Shown here: piece by piece, positions 4,112 to 30,136 of the stretch | Layout: each line of letters begins with the position of its first letter | Position numbering within the stretch: the stretch's first letter is position 1 | Source of the DNA: a virus | Length of the DNA: 31,623 bases | UHGV virus genome: UHGV-0098804 | Strand: one strand, 5' to 3' | Translations under genes and position numbers: made by a program | The notes under the pieces: generated by a model | What the model saw: the letters and a program-made list of their open reading frames with translations, nothing else | Told to the model about the DNA's origin: nothing | The model's database searches: none

Positions 4112-4219
4112 TTATTCCTCCGAAAAGCAGGTATCTGTTCATTTTCCAGAGGATAGGGAGTGTGTGATTTGCGATGGGGATTGAATGAAGATCTTTGCCG
4201 GTCGAGAAGCGATTATTGA

Positions 4220-4356: not shown

Positions 4357-4476
4357 TGGTGTAAGATTTGCCCTCAATTAAATACGATCGGTGTAAGATT
4401 TGCCCTCAGAAGGTGTAAGATTTGCCCTCAAAAGGTGTAGTAATTGCCCTCAAAGTGGTGTAAAAATTGCCCTCAC
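4357..4476 (+). repeat. Five direct iterons (19-20 bp, consensus GGTGTAAGATTTGCCCTCA) upstream of and overlapping the repA start region
   Basis: Copies at 4357-4376, 4389-4408, 4411-4430, 4433-4452, 4457-4476 with about 22-bp spacing. Ends in ATTGCCCTCA like F/RepFIB-type iterons as I recall them. Confidence 0.85.
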
Positions 4477-4499
4477 CATTTGAAGGATCACACAGGGTT

Positions 4500-5255
4500 A
4501 TGAACAGAGCGGAATTAACAGCAAAAGCCGTCAGCCTGATTGAGTCAGCGACACCTATTAGTCGTAGTCTGGCACAAGCCAATGAGATCACGGAGGCTGC
4601 TTATCACCTGACTCGCGACCAAAAGCGACTGTTGTTTATTGTGGTGGGAAGACTTCGCTATGCTTCTAAGGATGGCGTTCTTGGTTCAGGTGCCTGTGAG
4701 TTGACGGTCAACGAATATGCAGAGATGTATAATTTGCCCTCTGCTGAAGCCAGCAAGGATATTCGTAAGGCCATTTCAGGGCTTAGCGAGAAGAAAGTTA
4801 CGATATATAACCCTGATGAATCGACCGAATCAGAAGACAGTTATGAGTCTTATCCCTGGATGATTAAGGATGCCTATTCACCACGGCGCGGGACTTACAT
4901 TATTCATCTTAATCCATATCTCATGCCGTTTTTTACTCTGCTTGATAAGAGATTCACAAGGCTGAATTTTACCGAAGTATCTCGCCTTACAAATCCTTAT
5001 TCTATGCGGCTTTATGAGTCCTTATGCCAGTACAGGAAGGATGATGGAAGCGGCTTTGCCATACTTGGCGTCGAATGGATGCGGGAGCGTTATGGGTTAC
5101 CAAAAAGCTATCAGCGGTATGCCGAATTTAAGAGAAGTTTTTTAACGAAGGCTGTAGCAGAGATTGAAAAAAATACAAAAATGAAAATAGTCTTCTCAGA
5201 GGTGACGGAAGGCGGCAAAGTTACCAGGATAAAATTTACCTATCAGCAGTCTTAA
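4500..5255 (+). CDS. repA: Iteron-binding replication initiator RepA (Rep_3-like), about 251 aa
   Basis: Track ORF 4467..5255; preferred start is the ATG at 4500 (MNRAELTAK...) because the first 11 codons fall inside the last iteron. N-terminal LIESA...LTRDQKRLLFIVVGRL resembles the Rep_3 initiator motif (recalled, not searched). Flanked by iterons on both sides. Confidence 0.8.
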   Translation: MNRAELTAKAVSLIESATPISRSLAQANEITEAAYHLTRDQKRLLFIVVGRLRYASKDGVLGSGACELTVNEYAEMYNLPSAEASKDIRKAISGLSEKKVTIYNPDESTESEDSYESYPWMIKDAYSPRRGTYIIHLNPYLMPFFTLLDKRFTRLNFTEVSRLTNPYSMRLYESLCQYRKDDGSGFAILGVEWMRERYGLPKSYQRYAEFKRSFLTKAVAEIEKNTKMKIVFSEVTEGGKVTRIKFTYQQS

Positions 5256-5546
5256 GGGCAATTTTTACACCCCTCTCAAGGTGTAGAATTTGCCCTTAAC
5301 GATCGGCAATTGAGGGCAATTTTTACATCTTGATTGCATGTATCTCGTTATTAGCAAGTTGTGTTTTTATATAACGTATTGATATGTAAGGATTATGTAA
5401 AAATCGCCCTCAACCAATATCGTGCGTATCGTGCATTCTTATTGCGCTTTTTTATTATCATTCACTGTGTTAACTGATTGATATTATTGAAATATGTAAA
5501 GAATGCCTTCATTGCTGATGGATTGATGATGTAAAAAATGCCCTCA
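5255..5546. repeat. Second iteron cluster downstream of repA (mixed orientation, partly degenerate) with an AT-rich stretch: candidate incompatibility/copy-control locus
   Basis: Iteron-like copies at about 5255-5272 (inverted), 5279-5298 (direct), 5312-5330 (inverted), 5393-5413, 5491-5510, 5528-5546 (degenerate direct); AT-rich 5340-5480. Confidence 0.6.
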
Positions 5547-12721: not shown

Positions 12722-12879
12722 GGTTAAGCCCTAAATTCGGGCGCGGCGTGAAGGTTCTTTTGACGCGCTAACAATACCAACTTTGTGATTTAGTCAATAG
12801 CATTAGTAAAATAAAATCTGTTAACACACGTGTTGTTATGTGGTTTAATTTTAATTTTCTAACACAAATCATTACGGTT

Positions 12880-13272
12880 ATGGCGTATCGGATCTTTGTT
12901 TCGTATAAAAATGGCGCGAAAAGCCACTCCCTGAACACAACGAGCCGCTTTCTTGTTGAGGCGCAACTGGCATCAATTCTTGCTGAAAGTGAGATACTCT
13001 CCCTCGCTGAACGAATCGTCATCCAGTTTTCTGGTAGAGATATTCTTAATGTCCCCGCCCTCACCCCGGCCTCCGAAGTCATGGAATCCATTAAATGGCC
13101 TGTATGTGGATGCCCGGCGAGAGTTGAAGAGCCGGTAACCGCTACGCTCTATATGCCGAAAGCAGTAAGAGACTGGCTTGCTGTGATTGGCAACGGGAAA
13201 GTCAGTGCTGGACTGCGAAAGTTAATTGAAATGGCAGATATTCCAGAGTTAAAAAACGCATGGCGACAATGA
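12880..13272 (+). CDS. Hypothetical protein (about 130 aa; track start 12838, ATG 12880 preferred)
   Basis: Track ORF 12838..13272; the first 14 codons lie in an AT-rich promoter-like region; stop overlaps the next ORF (ATGGCGACAATGA). Confidence 0.3.
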   Translation: MAYRIFVSYKNGAKSHSLNTTSRFLVEAQLASILAESEILSLAERIVIQFSGRDILNVPALTPASEVMESIKWPVCGCPARVEEPVTATLYMPKAVRDWLAVIGNGKVSAGLRKLIEMADIPELKNAWRQ

Positions 13273-18420: not shown

Positions 18421-18446
18421 AAAAGCCCCAGGCGGGGCTTTTTCTA
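18421..18446. terminator. Bidirectional rho-independent terminator between the par operon and the dam operon
   Basis: aaaaagcccc aggc ggggcttttt: GC stem flanked by an A-run and a T-run; overlaps the dam stop codon. Confidence 0.6.
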
Positions 18447-19349
18447 TTTGAGCGTTGCAATGATATCGTTAGCGACTATTCGCGTGGATGCTTTGCATGA
18501 CACGGACCGCCTGGCTGGCATGTGGTACAGCTTAAAACCGTTTCTTTCGTACAATTCGCGAATTTTTGGCGCGCCACTGTTTGTTATTACTATCTTTGCA
18601 CCGCGCTGGTGGGCCGCCACCAACAGTGATACAAGCCGTTTTTGTTCATCGAAAAGGAAGCTATTTCCTGAATAGCTGGTAAATCCCTCTGTATCTGGCA
18701 GCGGCTCATACGGCGGATCACAAAAAATCACATCGTCTTCACCAGCCGCCTCGATGACACCAGCAAAGTCACCTGATACAAAGGAAGTGTTTTTGAGTAC
18801 GTCATCAGCCAAAAATGCCTCCATCTCTGCATGTGGGAAGTAGGGCGCTTTGTATTTGCCATACCCCACGTTGAACTCGCCATTTTGGTTGTACCGCGTT
18901 ACGCCATTAAAACAGTGACGATTAAGGTACAAAAATGCGGCAGCATGATGTAGCTGGTCATATTTTCCTCTGTTAAATGCCTCACGCACTTCGAGGTAAG
19001 CGTCAGCGTTGTTGTAATTTTTGAAAAAACTATATGACAGCGTGACGAGCGAATGTCCTTCTCGCTGCAATGTCTGATAGAAGTTAATCAGGTCACCGTT
19101 AATATCATTAAGCAGGTTTTGGCGAAATCCTGCATTCGTAAATACGGAACCGCCACCAACGAATGGTTCTATTAACCGCTTACCGTGTGGTAGATGCTCA
19201 AGCACTGTAGGCAATTCTGAGAATTTACCACCTACCCATTTGAATATCGGACGCTCATATTCATCCGGAGTCCGAATGGTGCGCATATAGCTAATTTCAG
19301 CCATCGTATCCTGTTTTTCTATGGCTATGCTTGCTATAGATTTACTCAT
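18444..19349 (-). CDS. dam: DNA adenine methyltransferase (Dam-like, N6-adenine, DPPY motif)
   Basis: FKWVGGK...EPFVGGGSVF...LYLNR...CDPPY align with E. coli Dam motifs (recalled). Preferred start is the ATG at 19349 (MSKSIA), which overlaps the upstream stop by 8 bp; the track start 19445 would overlap the upstream gene by about 100 bp. Confidence 0.85.
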   Translation of the reverse strand: MSKSIASIAIEKQDTMAEISYMRTIRTPDEYERPIFKWVGGKFSELPTVLEHLPHGKRLIEPFVGGGSVFTNAGFRQNLLNDINGDLINFYQTLQREGHSLVTLSYSFFKNYNNADAYLEVREAFNRGKYDQLHHAAAFLYLNRHCFNGVTRYNQNGEFNVGYGKYKAPYFPHAEMEAFLADDVLKNTSFVSGDFAGVIEAAGEDDVIFCDPPYEPLPDTEGFTSYSGNSFLFDEQKRLVSLLVAAHQRGAKIVITNSGAPKIRELYERNGFKLYHMPARRSVSCKASTRIVANDIIATLK

Positions 19350-20022
19350 AGAGCACCCCCTTATTCGCTTCGAAAACTGCCTTTGCGAATCCATGTGGAG
19401 TAGCACTTCGAAAATTAGCCCTGTCAGGCCCTGGTGGCGCGGCATGGATTCTGTTATCTGGCTTGCCTAATGATTCGTCCATTAGGGCATCAGGCATGAC
19501 AAAGCCCTGGCCGCTCCAGAGGCATGTTTTTTTGGTGTAGTTATCTTCCTGACAATATGCAGTGAAGAAGTAAGGGTGAAAGATGTGATCTGGCTTACGC
19601 CAGAATGTCGATATTTTGCTGACCGGATTTTCAATCATGTACGGACAACCGATCATCTTTGCAATGTCATAACACTGCCAGACAACCTGCATTGCTTTGA
19701 ACTGGAAAACCGGATCTTTATTAGCCTTGTCTGAAAACCAGCGCGCGCCGGAAACAGCCAGGTCAGTACACGGTGGGAACCCGGCCAGAAACACGATGCG
19801 CTGCAAATTCTTACGGAGAAAAGCGTATACTTCATCGCTATCGATGATCGCACTAATACGCGTCAGAACGGCACCTGATTGCATCCGCTCGTCACTGGTC
19901 GATAAGTGCTGTGGATCGACGATAGCGGCATCGACACCGTATTCCAGCCAGGGGGCAACCATTGCCCCCGTAAAATCACAAAGACTCACAACAAGCGGTC
20001 GGTTATTATCGTTCTGCTTCAC
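19342..20022 (-). CDS. Short C5-cytosine-methyltransferase-like protein (about 227 aa)
   Basis: [14 protein letters not shown] resembles C5-MTase motif IV (PCQ) and MIENPV resembles motif VI (ENV); weak motif-I-like LCDFTGA. GTG start at 20022 has GGAGG 10 nt upstream and overlaps the rdgC stop; the track ATG at 20094 would lie 88 bp inside rdgC. Confidence 0.45.
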
Positions 20023-20911
20023 CGCCAATGGCCTCCACCAGCGCGTTAAACAGTGCAGATAATTCGCCCGTAAAGAGCACGAAATCAGCATCAAATCGTT
20101 GTGCTACATCCTCCCGGTCGATATCGTCGTTCTGGTCATAGAGATCATCACAGAATGTCAGGGCTTTGATACTCATATCATCGTTGACTTTGAACGACGC
20201 GCGGTCCATCCAGTTAATTGCAACGGTCGTAGCTACTTTCCCCGCCTCAATGTGAGACATAATCTCGTCGGACTGTAGATCAACTTTGTTGCAGCGAACG
20301 GCACCACCATTATCGAGCAGACCCTTTAATGTGGCGTCTTCACCTGCTGTAAATCCGGCAGGGAAGCCGTTTTTAAACCACTCGGTCATTGTAATTTCCA
20401 GCGGTTCGCGTGGTGTGAATGGAATGACAGGCAGGCTGCCGAGCGATTTTCGCAATAAAGCCAGCTGGTCCTCTGCTTTTTTGGCGCTGCTTGCCTCAAC
20501 GAATACCAGATGGTTGCTGCGGTCGATCAGGATTTTTGCGAGTGATTTTCTCGTGAAAGCACGAGGAAGAAGAGAGTGAAGCACTTCATCCTTCAGCGAA
20601 TCTTTTTCGGTCTTCTTCAGCTTTCTGTCTTGCTCTTCTTCAAGTTTCAGGATTTTTTTCTGTAACTCTTCTTTGAGTACTTGAGAAGGCAGGATTTTTT
20701 CCTCTCGTTTATGCTGCATCAGAAGAAAACCCTGGTATTCATGGGTGAGGTTGTCGCCAAGAATTGGGGTCCAACCAGCTTTAGCCATATCCTGAGAACC
20801 GCATGGGGTAAACACAAACTTGCTAAGGGCTGCATTTACTTCTGCAGTATCCCAGCTAACTTCGCGTGAAAGACGATAGATGAAGATATTTTTGAAAGCG
20901 ACTGATCTCAT
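20006..20911 (-). CDS. rdgC: Recombination-associated protein RdgC homologue
   Basis: Near-colinear similarity to E. coli RdgC as recalled (FKNxxxYRLSRExS, [31 protein letters not shown], [15 protein letters not shown]). Confidence 0.85.
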
Positions 20912-20917
20912 GTCTCA

Positions 20918-20961
20918 CCATTTATGTTAGAAAATACACATTAATTATCTAACACAAATGG
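20918..20961. promoter_or_regulatory. Operator-like imperfect inverted repeat (ccatttatgttagaaaa ... ttatctaacacaaatgg) in the 60-bp gap upstream of rdgC
   Basis: Two arms of about 17 bp around a central acacattaatt; a matching half-site (ttttctaacacaaatca) occurs at 12853-12869 upstream of the capsid-like gene. Confidence 0.4.
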
Positions 20962-20970
20962 GTGCATTTT

Positions 20971-21624
20971 CTATCCTTTCTTGAAATCGAAGTTGCCAGC
21001 AGTGGCCTGAAAGGTTCCCCCTGCCTTGAAAGCTATGTTTCCGTTAGCGGTGACAGCAATATTTTCCCCATTAACATTGATGTTGTTGGCTGATTTGACG
21101 TTAACACTCCCTCCTGCATTCACGATTACATCAGCCGGACCAATGATATATATCTGCCCGGACTCATTCATGCCAATCCTTGAGCCTGCTGCCGTATTGG
21201 CAATTTCATAGCCGCCACCAGCAGTTCGTACTTCAAGAATATTGTTGCGGTGAATAACGAAGTCTTTCGTTGCTGAGATTTGGGGGCGGGGAGGTGCTCC
21301 ATCTACTTCCGGCGGCGTCCAGCCGCTACCATTGCCTGACGCCTCCGGCGCGACGTTTGGAACTCCGCCAGGCGCATCCTGAGCTGCGCCAACTATCATT
21401 GGGCGTCTGGTGTCTATTCGACCGTTAACATCTAAATAAGGAAACTCTACCCAGACAAGGTCACCTTTGACTGTAGGTACAAAAGCGTTCCCGATGGGTA
21501 ACAGGTATTCCGCCCAGGGTAGATCGTCATCAGGAACGCCATTCCAGTCAGGTAAAACACGGACTTGAGCACGCATAAGCCCTGCCGGGTGCACAGTTCC
21601 AACAATTTGCGCTCTACGCTTCAT
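20971..21624 (-). CDS. Baseplate central spike protein (gpV / gp5-like)
   Basis: N-terminal pattern (GTVHPAGLMRAQVRV...LPWAEYLLPIGN...KGDLVWVEF) resembles baseplate assembly protein V; C-terminus is a Gly/Asn/Val repeat typical of a beta-helix spike. Confidence 0.5.
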   Translation of the reverse strand: MKRRAQIVGTVHPAGLMRAQVRVLPDWNGVPDDDLPWAEYLLPIGNAFVPTVKGDLVWVEFPYLDVNGRIDTRRPMIVGAAQDAPGGVPNVAPEASGNGSGWTPPEVDGAPPRPQISATKDFVIHRNNILEVRTAGGGYEIANTAAGSRIGMNESGQIYIIGPADVIVNAGGSVNVKSANNINVNGENIAVTANGNIAFKAGGTFQATAGNFDFKKG

Positions 21625-22601
21625 TTGTTAGGCACTCCCAATATCATTCGTGTTGTGTAGCCTACTCGGTCCTCAAAGTGCGCAACATTTTTTACTATCA
21701 GCTTACGGGGCATTGATTCATCAATGCGGTTTTCCTGGTCATAGCGGTATACGATAATCTCTATTACCATCCCCGGTTTTATATCAGGATTGCCTGCGAC
21801 TTCTATATCCATTTTGGGGACGAGAGACAGCTGCATATTGCGAAGAGTTTCCATATCAGAGTCGGATATATAACGCACTGGGAGTGAGCTATCGCCATAT
21901 TCGACGTAGCCATCGGTCATGGAATACCCAACAAAACGATATTGATTCTTTGCTGTTGTCGCATGTTCCTGTTGGAGTAGGCGCATTTTGGACAAAGTGT
22001 ATTCTGCTTTAGGGTTATTCCCCTCGTAGGTAAATGATGGCGTTTGCTTCATCAGATCATCCAGGGTGTAAAAGTTAAATTCCCCCCGGCATACCCAACA
22101 TAATGCACCTTTGTCTCGCGCTATCTCCGAAAGCATTTTTGACGGTTTGTCACCGGCATTCAGATGATATGTAACTGCGCGTTTTAGCACGCTGCTGGTA
22201 ATTTTAAGCTTGCCGGAATATGCCTTGAATATAGCGTCTGGTGTTTTGTTGGTATGTAAATTTGTGCGCGGGGAGGGGATCTTAAACCTGCGCACGTCTT
22301 CACTGACAGCAATAACGGTAACAACATCACCAGCCAGCATTGCAGACGTAACAAAGAAATCTGTTTTAAAAGTGCCTGCATTACCGTTTGGATCGCCCAT
22401 TTCAGCCACCAGCGATGCACCGTATTTGGCTTTCCAGTCATCAATTACGGTGCCGGTAGCGTCATGAATTTCCAGTTTTAGCAAAGGGGCTTTGAGGCTG
22501 GTTTTTTCTACATATACTGCGGTAAAAATCCAGTCTCGTGGCACTTTGTTATCGTTAATGAGCACTGACTGTAGAAAATATTGTTGTAACTCCTGGGCCA
22601 C
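21621..22601 (-). CDS. Hypothetical baseplate-associated protein (326 aa)
   Basis: Track ORF; 4-bp overlap with the downstream spike gene; no family recognised. Confidence 0.45.
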   Translation of the reverse strand: MAQELQQYFLQSVLINDNKVPRDWIFTAVYVEKTSLKAPLLKLEIHDATGTVIDDWKAKYGASLVAEMGDPNGNAGTFKTDFFVTSAMLAGDVVTVIAVSEDVRRFKIPSPRTNLHTNKTPDAIFKAYSGKLKITSSVLKRAVTYHLNAGDKPSKMLSEIARDKGALCWVCRGEFNFYTLDDLMKQTPSFTYEGNNPKAEYTLSKMRLLQQEHATTAKNQYRFVGYSMTDGYVEYGDSSLPVRYISDSDMETLRNMQLSLVPKMDIEVAGNPDIKPGMVIEIIVYRYDQENRIDESMPRKLIVKNVAHFEDRVGYTTRMILGVPNK

Positions 22602-22604
22602 TTA

Positions 22605-23372
22605 TCACCCCATAGATATCGAGGTTTCGGTAATAATACGTTTTGCGTCCAACTCCCATGCTGTGATCACGTCTGCAATCACACTTATCGGCGCTTGTGT
22701 GGCATAAATACGCTCTTCTCCAATTGGTGCTGAAACATCCGTAAAGCCGACTTCTTTGGCATCCTGTATCGAGCAAATCAGCGGGACCGGAACACGAACA
22801 AGGTGAGTGGTTGCTTCAAATTGTGTACCTGTCATCAGGCGAAGCCGTGCGCCCAGCGAATTACACATCAGACTCATGGTCGCTTTATCAGTTGCCATTA
22901 ACGTAACGTCATACGTCAGAATGGCCTGGGTGTATTCCAGTTCTGCTAAAGGCATTCCGGTATCCGGTTCGCAAAAACTGGCTACTTTTTTGCGGTCAAT
23001 CTGCTGATCATCGTTGATATAATTGATATCCATAGTGCGTGAGATATTGACCAGGGGGAGAGCATCCCGGTTAATGTTCTGGTTTTCAGGTTTTCTCCCT
23101 TGCCCGGCATTTGCGCGACGAACTGCTTTAAGAAACTCGATCGCATTGTCGAAACGGGCCACATAGACACGCTCTGCTGGTGGACGATTCAAGAATGACG
23201 CAAAGCGTTTTTCTTCCGGCGCGGGGGCCACCAGTAAGATATCAGAAAAGATATTGCTGATTAGCGTAGCAAACGCGTTATCCACGTTTTCAAAGCCCGT
23301 GGTCTGGAATTTCCCTGTGCGTGAGGTTTGCCATTCACCTGTTCGCGCCAGGAGGGTTTTATTTGAAGTCAT
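22605..23372 (-). CDS. Hypothetical tail/baseplate protein (255 aa)
   Basis: Track ORF in operon context; overlaps the upstream ORF by 4 bp. Confidence 0.45.
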   Translation of the reverse strand: MTSNKTLLARTGEWQTSRTGKFQTTGFENVDNAFATLISNIFSDILLVAPAPEEKRFASFLNRPPAERVYVARFDNAIEFLKAVRRANAGQGRKPENQNINRDALPLVNISRTMDINYINDDQQIDRKKVASFCEPDTGMPLAELEYTQAILTYDVTLMATDKATMSLMCNSLGARLRLMTGTQFEATTHLVRVPVPLICSIQDAKEVGFTDVSAPIGEERIYATQAPISVIADVITAWELDAKRIITETSISMG

Positions 23373-24160: not shown

Positions 24161-24322
24161 AAGCATCCTCAAAGGTCGATCTGTCAGGTATCGAAAGGAA
24201 GATTTTCGGGAGATTGTGATTTTGGATGAAGGAGGGGGAATCCATAAAGTGCACTTGCGCACAGTGCAACAGTGCGCTATAGTTATGGCATTCGGTAATC
24301 ATCACGGAGGATCAAATGACTA

Positions 24323-28254: not shown

Positions 28255-28590
28255 AATAATTCCATTCGTGCGTGCAACCTGTGTATATACGCTACACGCA
28301 GAAAGAGTAAAATGCAAGCACTATCCGTATAGACAGAGTTTTTTCGCCACCCTGGAATTTATTGACTGTCAACAAGTGACTTTCATTAATCTTAAGGCGT
28401 GGACCAGCTCGATAGTGAGCTGGGTGTTATTTACCGATCGAATGGATTCGAAAAGATGAATATTTTTAATAAGCTGATTGATTTATTGAATAAATTCATT
28501 AGTGCTTCTTTAACTCAGCAGGTATCCACGTCAGTGTTTTTGTTACTCTTCTACCTGGTATTGAGGGAGTTAACAAAGCTACTAATGTGA

Positions 28591-29296: not shown

Positions 29297-29512
29297 GCTT
29301 TGGCGTTATGACTCCCTACCGCGCTTCGGCTGAAAGTTAATCGTCAAAAGAACCTTCAACGGGAGCCGTTAGCGCGATGGATTATGTGCAGTTTGTGATT
29401 TCCAAAATAGTGTCAACCACTTTTTGTGGATTTTATTTTTTGACCGAAATTTGGCCTAAATCATGTTGATGTAGTTGATTGTTTTTGTAACATAAAACTT
29501 CATTTTGTTTAC

Positions 29513-30136
29513 ATGAAGGACGGTGTAGTGAAGTTAAGGGTTTTAGGGACCGCGCTCGCGGCTATGTTGGGATGCGTATCTGTTAATACAGCCAATGCAA
29601 CTGCGTTACCTGCACAATTCAGGGCAGGGCAGCAGGTTATGAATAACGCTGGTGGGGATCATTCACAAGCGGCAATTATGGACTTTTGCAAGAGAGAGGG
29701 CATTCCATTACGGCCTGTTGGAACTCAGTTTATTGGTAAAACTGACTTTTGCGTTTTTGCATATACAGCATATCTGACGGACAAAGCTATAACAAAAACA
29801 GGTTATTCAACCAAAGATACTCTTTCCAGATTAAGTCAGGGATGGCAGCAATTCGAAGTGTATCGCCAGCAAGGATTAGGTGAGTTATTACAACCACTTT
29901 TTATGCTTGCGCTGGTGCCCGAGGGGCAGCAATTTTTGGTTAAAAAGGGAATGCTTCGCCAAAGTGATATTGCCGGGTTCGATAGCATGATGGCTTATGA
30001 GCGCAAACTAACCGAGCAGCGAAATAAAAAACCATCTGCTTCATGTGTGCAAAGTAAAACAGCAGAATACAGTGCAGTAGCCGGGCCTTTAGCCAAACAA
30101 ATGGCAGAGCAATGGTGTAAAAAATACGGGCAATAA
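29513..30136 (+). CDS. Predicted exported protein (207 aa) with N-terminal signal peptide
   Basis: Track ORF; hydrophobic N-terminus LRVLGTALAAMLGCVSVNTANA with an AxA-like cleavage site; AT-rich promoter-like region upstream. Confidence 0.55.
   Translation: MKDGVVKLRVLGTALAAMLGCVSVNTANATALPAQFRAGQQVMNNAGGDHSQAAIMDFCKREGIPLRPVGTQFIGKTDFCVFAYTAYLTDKAITKTGYSTKDTLSRLSQGWQQFEVYRQQGLGELLQPLFMLALVPEGQQFLVKKGMLRQSDIAGFDSMMAYERKLTEQRNKKPSASCVQSKTAEYSAVAGPLAKQMAEQWCKKYGQ

Follow-up and report, generated by a model that had tools for sequence, protein, structure and literature searches.

A probable bivalent operator for a C1-family immunity repressor upstream of hrdC in a D6-like plasmid prophage of the P1 family

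A 31,623-nucleotide stretch of viral DNA (UHGV-0098804), referred to here as the window, was analyzed around an inverted repeat located upstream of an rdgC gene. Positions 19000-23000 were 98.8% identical to Escherichia phage D6 (MF356679). Phage D6 is a P1-like plasmid prophage and, judged by nucleotide identity, the window is a D6-like plasmid prophage of the P1 family. Positions 20500-21400 (901 bp) were 100% identical to the E. coli plasmid p1_000837 (NZ_CP032875.1), and in a search with the hrdC locus 169 plasmid records were matched, the majority being of Escherichia, Salmonella and Shigella origin. At hrdC, the offset between window and D6 coordinates differed by 1838 bp from that at the capsid gene, indicating that approximately 1.8 kb of D6 is missing from the window in the interval between these genes; the window is, therefore, a relative of D6 (p1_000837-like) and not D6 itself. 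A glutaminyl-tRNA synthetase gene sits in the corresponding interval of D6. Outside the region shared with the window, p1_000837 carries two TnpB-family RNA-guided endonuclease genes (L012, 39022-40230; L011, 44097-45305), both of which are absent from the D6 annotation. The best inverted repeat of the window lies at 5252-5299, with 20-nt arms (TTAAGGGCAATTTTTACACC and GGTGTAGAATTTGCCCTTAA) that are 90% complementary and separated by a gap of 8 nt; this repeat begins at the stop of a RepB-type replication initiator ORF (4467-5255) and may act in termination or in the control of replication.

The rdgC gene is orf65 in the D6 annotation, where it is described as "similar to P1 gene hrdC"; it is termed hrdC below. 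According to this annotation, gene 5 (baseplate) is followed on the same strand by hrdC and then by two methylase genes, one putatively for cytosine and the other for adenine, the latter described as "similar to P1 dmt" (Table 1). The 565-aa gene located further to the left is annotated in D6 as the homologue of P1 gene 23, the major capsid gene. Pfam searches found no family for the D6-type C1 protein, orf52, ORF 29513-30136, the capsid protein or gene 5.

Table 1. Genes, predicted promoter elements and putative regulatory sites in the window
Feature	Position	Strand	Basis or remark
Adenine methylase, D12 class, dam/dmt-like	18444-19445	-	Pfam PF02086, 1e-55
Putative cytosine methylase, D6 orf64 homologue	19342-20094	-	D6 annotation; without Pfam match
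hrdC/rdgC	20006-20911	-	Pfam PF04381, 9e-103
Predicted target operon (hrdC and both methylase ORFs)	18444-20911	-	D6 orf63-65 annotation
Imperfect palindrome in the gene 5-hrdC gap	20918-20961	.	Arms 20918-20935 and 20944-20961; dyad between 20939 and 20940
Putative promoter-proximal operator copy GTGTATTTTCTAACATAA	20922-20939	-	17.5 bits; 22.0 bits in D6
Putative promoter-distal operator copy ATTAATTATCTAACACAA	20940-20957	+	24.1 bits
Predicted -10 hexamer GATAAT, inside distal copy	20944-20949	-	Promoter scan
Putative single operator copy TTTAATTTTCTAACACAA	12850-12867	+	26.3 bits, best of the window
Putative fourth operator copy, weaker, ATTGTTTTTGTAACATAA	29478-29495	+	16.8 bits; D6 equivalent 72197-72214
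orf52 homologue	12880-13272	+	phrog_7830; D6 orf52 start
ORF 29513-30136	29513-30136	+	phrog_12786; copy at 29478-29495 lies 18 bp before
Late box, pmgB/sit	4150-4169	-	No mismatch
Late box, gene 23 (capsid)	12771-12790	-	No mismatch
Late box, gene 7	24202-24221	-	No mismatch
Late box, mat	29381-29400	-	No mismatch

An imperfect palindrome, conserved throughout D6-like relatives, is located in the 59 bp that separate the gene 5 homologue, with its stop at 20971, from the ATG of hrdC (20911, minus strand). The arms (CCATTTATGTTAGAAAAT and ATTATCTAACACAAATGG) are 18 nt each, 89% complementary and 8 nt apart. An inverted-repeat search with a seed of 7 detected this repeat, the longest exact run of which is 7, while the whole-window search with a seed of 8 missed it. 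The preliminary description of the locus had reported an imperfect inverted repeat in this gap, which is real (the 17-nt arms as first drawn match at 15 of 17 positions), and a nearly identical third copy upstream of the capsid gene. The latter also exists (TTTTCTAACACAAATCA) but lies at 12855-12871 rather than at 12853-12869, a shift of 2 bp. The 12-mer TCTAACACAAAT was present in the window as two exact copies and one copy with a single mismatch. When up to two mismatches were allowed, seven matches were obtained against a shuffle mean of 3.1, and 2 of 100 shuffles reached this number. This loose scan was unconvincing alone; hence, a matrix trained on an independent relative was used instead.

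Copies of the motif were gathered as every match to T[TA]TCTAAC[AG] in p1_000837 and in the E. marmotae plasmid NZ_CP099353, which is ~70% identical at the hrdC locus. Information was concentrated in ~17 asymmetric positions, ATTAATTTTCTAACAYA, in a conserved register located ~5 bp inward of the half-site first drawn; the outer AAATGG/AAATCA was almost uninformative across sites. A position weight matrix was built from the E. marmotae copies only and applied with a threshold of at least 15 bits. Four matches were detected in the window against 0.27 expected (simulation maximum of 2, n = 60), indicating that the repetition is well beyond chance. In the D6 genome there were 15 matches against 0.75 expected, and 14 of these were in intergenic DNA, which makes up 10.2% of D6 (binomial, 2e-13). 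Occurrence at chance frequency with no enrichment at promoters had been named beforehand as the outcome that would speak against a shared site; this outcome was not observed, the enrichment in intergenic DNA being strong.

The matrix sites at hrdC indicated that the inverted repeat consists of two complete asymmetric units abutting at the dyad. The symmetric operator with 17-bp half-sites that was originally drawn has, hence, been replaced by an asymmetric unit of ~17 to 18 nt, present as two copies placed head to head. A second abutting head-to-head pair is present in D6 at 80706-80723 (minus) and 80724-80741 (plus), and the remaining D6 sites are single. The core AATTATCTAACACA of the distal copy was invariant in aligned relatives down to ~70% DNA identity with two exceptions, a Salmonella plasmid (NZ_MK356558) and a contig whose RdgC is 69% identical (L035). 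The alignment showed a footprint, with TGTGTTAGAAAAT...AATTATCTAACACA unchanged in the ~70%-identical relatives and the surroundings divergent. Among 19 distinct relatives, the core TGTGTTAGA(A/T)AAT...ATT(A/T)TCTAACACA was essentially invariant.

The genes next to the D6 sites were then compared with the known operators of P1. Sites were located directly before c1, lpa, repL, the icd/antirepressor operon, ref with the divergent orf88, pmgS and hrdC(-dam), with further sites before a simB-like gene, a pdcB-like gene and orf117. The C1 operators in the P1 GenBank record (Lobocka et al.) include Oc1a-e, Olpa, OrepL (Op53), Oc4 (Op51) and OpmgRa/b (Op86). This record also has Odmt (formerly Op68) and the promoter Pdmt upstream of uhr-hrdC-dmt, which was considered decisive for the finding at hrdC. 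The D6 site positions mirror the annotated C1 regulon of P1, position for position. P1 C1 has 22 dispersed asymmetric 17-bp operators with the consensus ATTGCTCTAATAAATTT (PMC8546580); dmt, ref, kilA and ban of P1 are lytic genes under C1 control, an operator of P1 ref is known, and P1 dmt is induced once C1 is inactivated (PMC4713147). The suggestion that one regulator is common to otherwise unrelated promoters is, thus, supported by the presence of sites at P1 C1-operator positions.

A C1 homologue of 345 aa is encoded by D6 (orf1) and p1_000837, the gene being located outside the 31.6-kb window. Both this protein (5e-170) and P1 C1 (3e-140) matched phrog_1678, and BLASTP detected 21% identity between the two over 240 aa (E = 2e-8). 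The D6-lineage motif did not match the P1/P7 consensus beyond ATT...TCTAA, at a different spacing. The sites are, therefore, not operators of P1 specificity and, if operators, have a different (heteroimmune) specificity; the divergence of the motif together with the distant C1 homology fits a homologous repressor of different specificity. The other testable properties of C1 operators were all found, namely, a dispersed asymmetric site of ~17 bp, a location at early and immunity promoters, a C1-family gene and the occurrence of monovalent and bivalent forms, so that the P1 consensus match was the only one lacking. From these similarities, we infer that C1 is the protein binding the D6-lineage sites. 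With an estimated probability of about 0.8, the hrdC palindrome serves a D6-type, P1-like plasmid prophage as a bivalent operator, to which its C1-family immunity repressor would bind. Points against this reading are the low identity of the two C1 proteins, the departure from the P1 consensus, the weakness of the promoter predicted at hrdC, the lack of a good promoter over the orf52 site and a geometry of the paired copies that is unlike that of P1. The D6 GenBank record contains no annotated operators or regulatory sites. A full-text literature search for TTTCTAACA returned unrelated primer matches only, and an earlier description of the D6 motif is possible.

A promoter scan of the gap detected TAGAAA-18-GATAAT (9 of 12 consensus positions), with the -35-like TAGAAA at 20968-20973. 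Position k = 8 from the dyad was T/T in 17 of the 19 distinct sequences and was the only conserved break in symmetry. Because of this T/T, the distal copy reads TTATC and not TTTTC and, therefore, GATAAT on the hrdC strand. The consensus match of the predicted hrdC promoter is, hence, backed by conservation, although with a -35 of TAGAAA and a 9/12 match the promoter is predicted to be weak. Transcription from GATAAT would start near 20937, within the "loop" of the palindrome. The distal copy would then cover the -10 element and the promoter spacer (about -3 to -20), and the proximal copy the start site and early 5' UTR (about -2 to +16). In the proposed mechanism, a C1-family repressor would recognize the ~17-bp asymmetric site, two of which lie back to back before hrdC; as two repressors would cover the core promoter, RNA polymerase would be excluded and hrdC and the methylase genes would be off in the lysogen. 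Following inactivation of C1, the hrdC operon would fire as an early lytic function, like dmt in P1. Operator-based silencing of early genes is the ordinary way for the P1-like phage family.

The single copies at 12850-12867 and 29478-29495 would repress the small divergent genes orf52 and ORF 29513-30136 in the same manner and would not serve the adjacent capsid or mat genes. The former site, which had been taken as a control element of the capsid gene, is on the plus strand, with its end 13 bp short of the start codon of the divergent orf52 homologue, and is placed ~60 bp past the late box of the capsid gene itself, so that this assignment was abandoned. The promoter scan found no good sigma-70 promoter overlapping this operator, the sole match being TTGTGA-18-TAAAAT ~40 bp upstream. 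A near-palindrome (GTTAACACACGTGTTGTTA; 12820-12838, plus strand) containing the operator core TAACACA is located 12 bp upstream of the orf52 operator; its GTTAACA is conserved in D6 and the E. marmotae plasmid, and the near-palindrome may represent a second, degenerate operator or belong to the orf52 promoter. Possible -35 (TTGATG) and -10 (TAACAT) hexamers, read by eye, overlap the site at 29478-29495. The arrangement of a leftward late promoter and a rightward small gene with an operator was, thus, seen twice (23/orf52 and mat/ORF 29513).

Late promoters were examined separately. The P1 late pattern RTGACT-N4-7-TAnnnT yielded just a single convincing site each for the window (28371-28392) and D6, and the late box of this lineage had to be found de novo. 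The box AAATCACA-N7-TAnnnT was common to seven D6 late operons (pmgB/sit, 23, prt, R, 7, ddrB and 26), with a variant, ATTTCACA, at gene 26. Matrix scans of D6 and the window did not find the TTTCTAACA motif at late-operon promoters. Two regulatory vocabularies coexist in this lineage, and that of the hrdC motif is the repressor one. The P1-type site at 28371-28392 (plus strand; AACAAGTGACT-TTCAT-TAATCT) closely resembles P1 LP23 (CAACAAGTGACTTTCAATAAAAT). It has the gene 26 region on one side and the mat region on the other and is conserved in D6 at 71098; a lone P1-type box beside the box of the lineage is odd.

The hrdC palindrome extends further than the operator. Positions k = 16-22 from the dyad fall on the 3' edge of the operator consensus or outside it and have low information, yet were found to remain complementary through changes in both arms. 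The arms end in CCATTTG/CAAATGG in the window and D6, CCAATTG/CAATTGG in a second group (ATTATG/CATAAT in one member), GCAAAACTG/CAGTTTTGC in the E. marmotae group and CAATG/CATTG in a Shigella plasmid. For the window (20918-20961) and the homologous loci L005-L008 and L015-L039, RNAalifold detected six pairs with double-sided changes. Paired cells amounted to 97.7%, the covariation score was reached by none of 500 shuffles, and the signal collapsed in slid controls. In the inner 13 bp, 10 of 13 pairs never varied. A shift in repressor specificity was considered as the cause of the outer-arm changes and rejected, as other operators of the E. marmotae plasmid are without the CAGTTTTG flank and the c1-proximal operator core is identical in groups whose C1 proteins have 100%, 89% and 80% identity. 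Operator function alone does not account for the covariation of the outer positions.

These observations bear on the alternative that the palindrome is mainly a nucleic acid hairpin, and its resemblance to the other sites secondary, acting in read-through RNA of the tail operon (7-24-6-5) to terminate, to be processed by RNase III, to insulate, or to mask the hrdC ribosome-binding site. The sense RNA folds at -20.8 kcal/mol (z = -3.8), which together with the six covarying pairs favors a hairpin, as do the changes at the consensus edge between lineages with an identical c1-proximal core and the lack of extended symmetry in the second head-to-head pair (D6 80706/80724). We nevertheless regard this alternative as improbable, since a hairpin cannot be formed by the ~13 single copies of the core that occur unpaired at other places in the genome and the inner 13 bp are conserved as sequence, beyond mere pairing. 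Termination also fits poorly: the stem is AT-rich and followed by UGAGACAUG, failing the pattern of a GC-rich stem and U-tract, and a scan of 20800-21100 found no terminator-like site and no U-tract. Furthermore, with the predicted start in the loop, the mRNA of the operon itself would be without the 5' arm, and both arms would be present only in read-through RNA. Two readings of the outer covariation remain. One is a functional hairpin in late read-through RNA or single-stranded DNA. The other, which the same data fit, is non-adaptive homogenization of the arms by quasi-palindrome template switching; template-switch "correction" during replication can reportedly produce symmetric quasi-palindrome changes without selection (Ripley 1982 and the Lovett laboratory). 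A dual purpose, in which the bivalent C1 operator in DNA would also form a ~22-bp stem-loop in late tail-operon read-through RNA, is possible but doubtful. If true, the stem-loop could serve as a target of RNase III-type processing, as an insulator or as a cover over the ribosome-binding site of hrdC, late structural transcripts would be uncoupled from the early hrdC-methylase operon, and the compensatory changes outside the operator consensus would be explained with repressor specificity unchanged.

The preliminary description had left the type of regulator as a late activator or an immunity repressor. A late activator (Lpa homologue) co-activating rdgC and the capsid gene would agree with the presence of an lpa homologue (D6 orf4), the location of one copy in the intergenic DNA that precedes the capsid gene and a loose resemblance of the outer part, ACAAATGG/ACAAATCA, to the P1 -22 box CAAATGACT. 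This explanation is very unlikely, as the D6 late operons share their own box, with four perfect copies in the window that are all on the minus strand, while the hrdC motif is absent from late promoters and marks C1-operator positions such as c1, lpa, repL, icd/ant and ref; moreover, the copy near the capsid gene points away from it. Of the two candidates, the immunity repressor is, therefore, the one that fits. An origin in chance similarity of AT-rich intergenic DNA, or as iterons, a partition centromere or IHF sites, is hardly credible. The loose 12-mer count is only ~2-fold above expectation and the AT content of intergenic DNA is somewhat raised (43.6% GC, against 47.0% for the whole genome), but D6 intergenic DNA analyzed alone, with its own base composition as the null, contained 12 sites against 0.13 expected. 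The sites are also single, spread over 90 kb and placed at gene starts rather than clustered near repB or parM, and relatives with an overall identity of 70% have an unchanged core.

The result is a probable operator sequence and, hence, the probable immunity specificity and C1 regulon of the D6 lineage, whose phage-plasmids are common in E. coli, Salmonella and Shigella. The motif could be used for predicting accessory genes that are silent in the lysogen (orf52 and ORF 29513-30136), for predicting heteroimmunity with P1 and P7 and for the design of induction reporters. As P1 has been known since the 1980s to carry asymmetric C1 operators at dispersed positions, the conceptual gain is small; the covarying palindrome extension alone goes past the textbook picture.

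By analogy, the hrdC palindrome may be regarded as the D6-lineage functional counterpart of P1 Odmt/Pdmt, in which a C1-type site is likewise located at the promoter of an operon for hrdC and a Dam methylase in the same family of plasmid prophages. The arrangements differ in that P1 has one 17-mer (ATTGCTCTAATAAATAT) abutting the -35 element, whereas the window has two inverted copies (ATTAATTWTCTAACAYA) over -10 and +1. Furthermore, hrdC of the window follows tail gene 5 on the same strand and is without uhr, and the fused dmt of P1 is represented in D6 by separate cytosine and adenine methylase ORFs. The P1 operators Obanab (Op72ab) and Oc1ab (Op99ab) are similar in consisting of two inverted asymmetric sites that form an imperfect palindrome overlapping a sigma-70 promoter. 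In these bivalent operators, however, the 17-mers converge and overlap by 6 bp at their AAATTT ends, while the 18-mers of the window diverge and abut at their ATT ends, with a palindrome that runs 4 to 6 bp past the consensus and exhibits covariation. The Lpa-dependent late promoters of P1 (-22 box CAAaTGACT, N5, TAnAAT) have their counterpart in the late box of the window, which has the same architecture but another box sequence; the hrdC motif differs from this class in sequence and in not being located at late structural operons, and does not belong to it.
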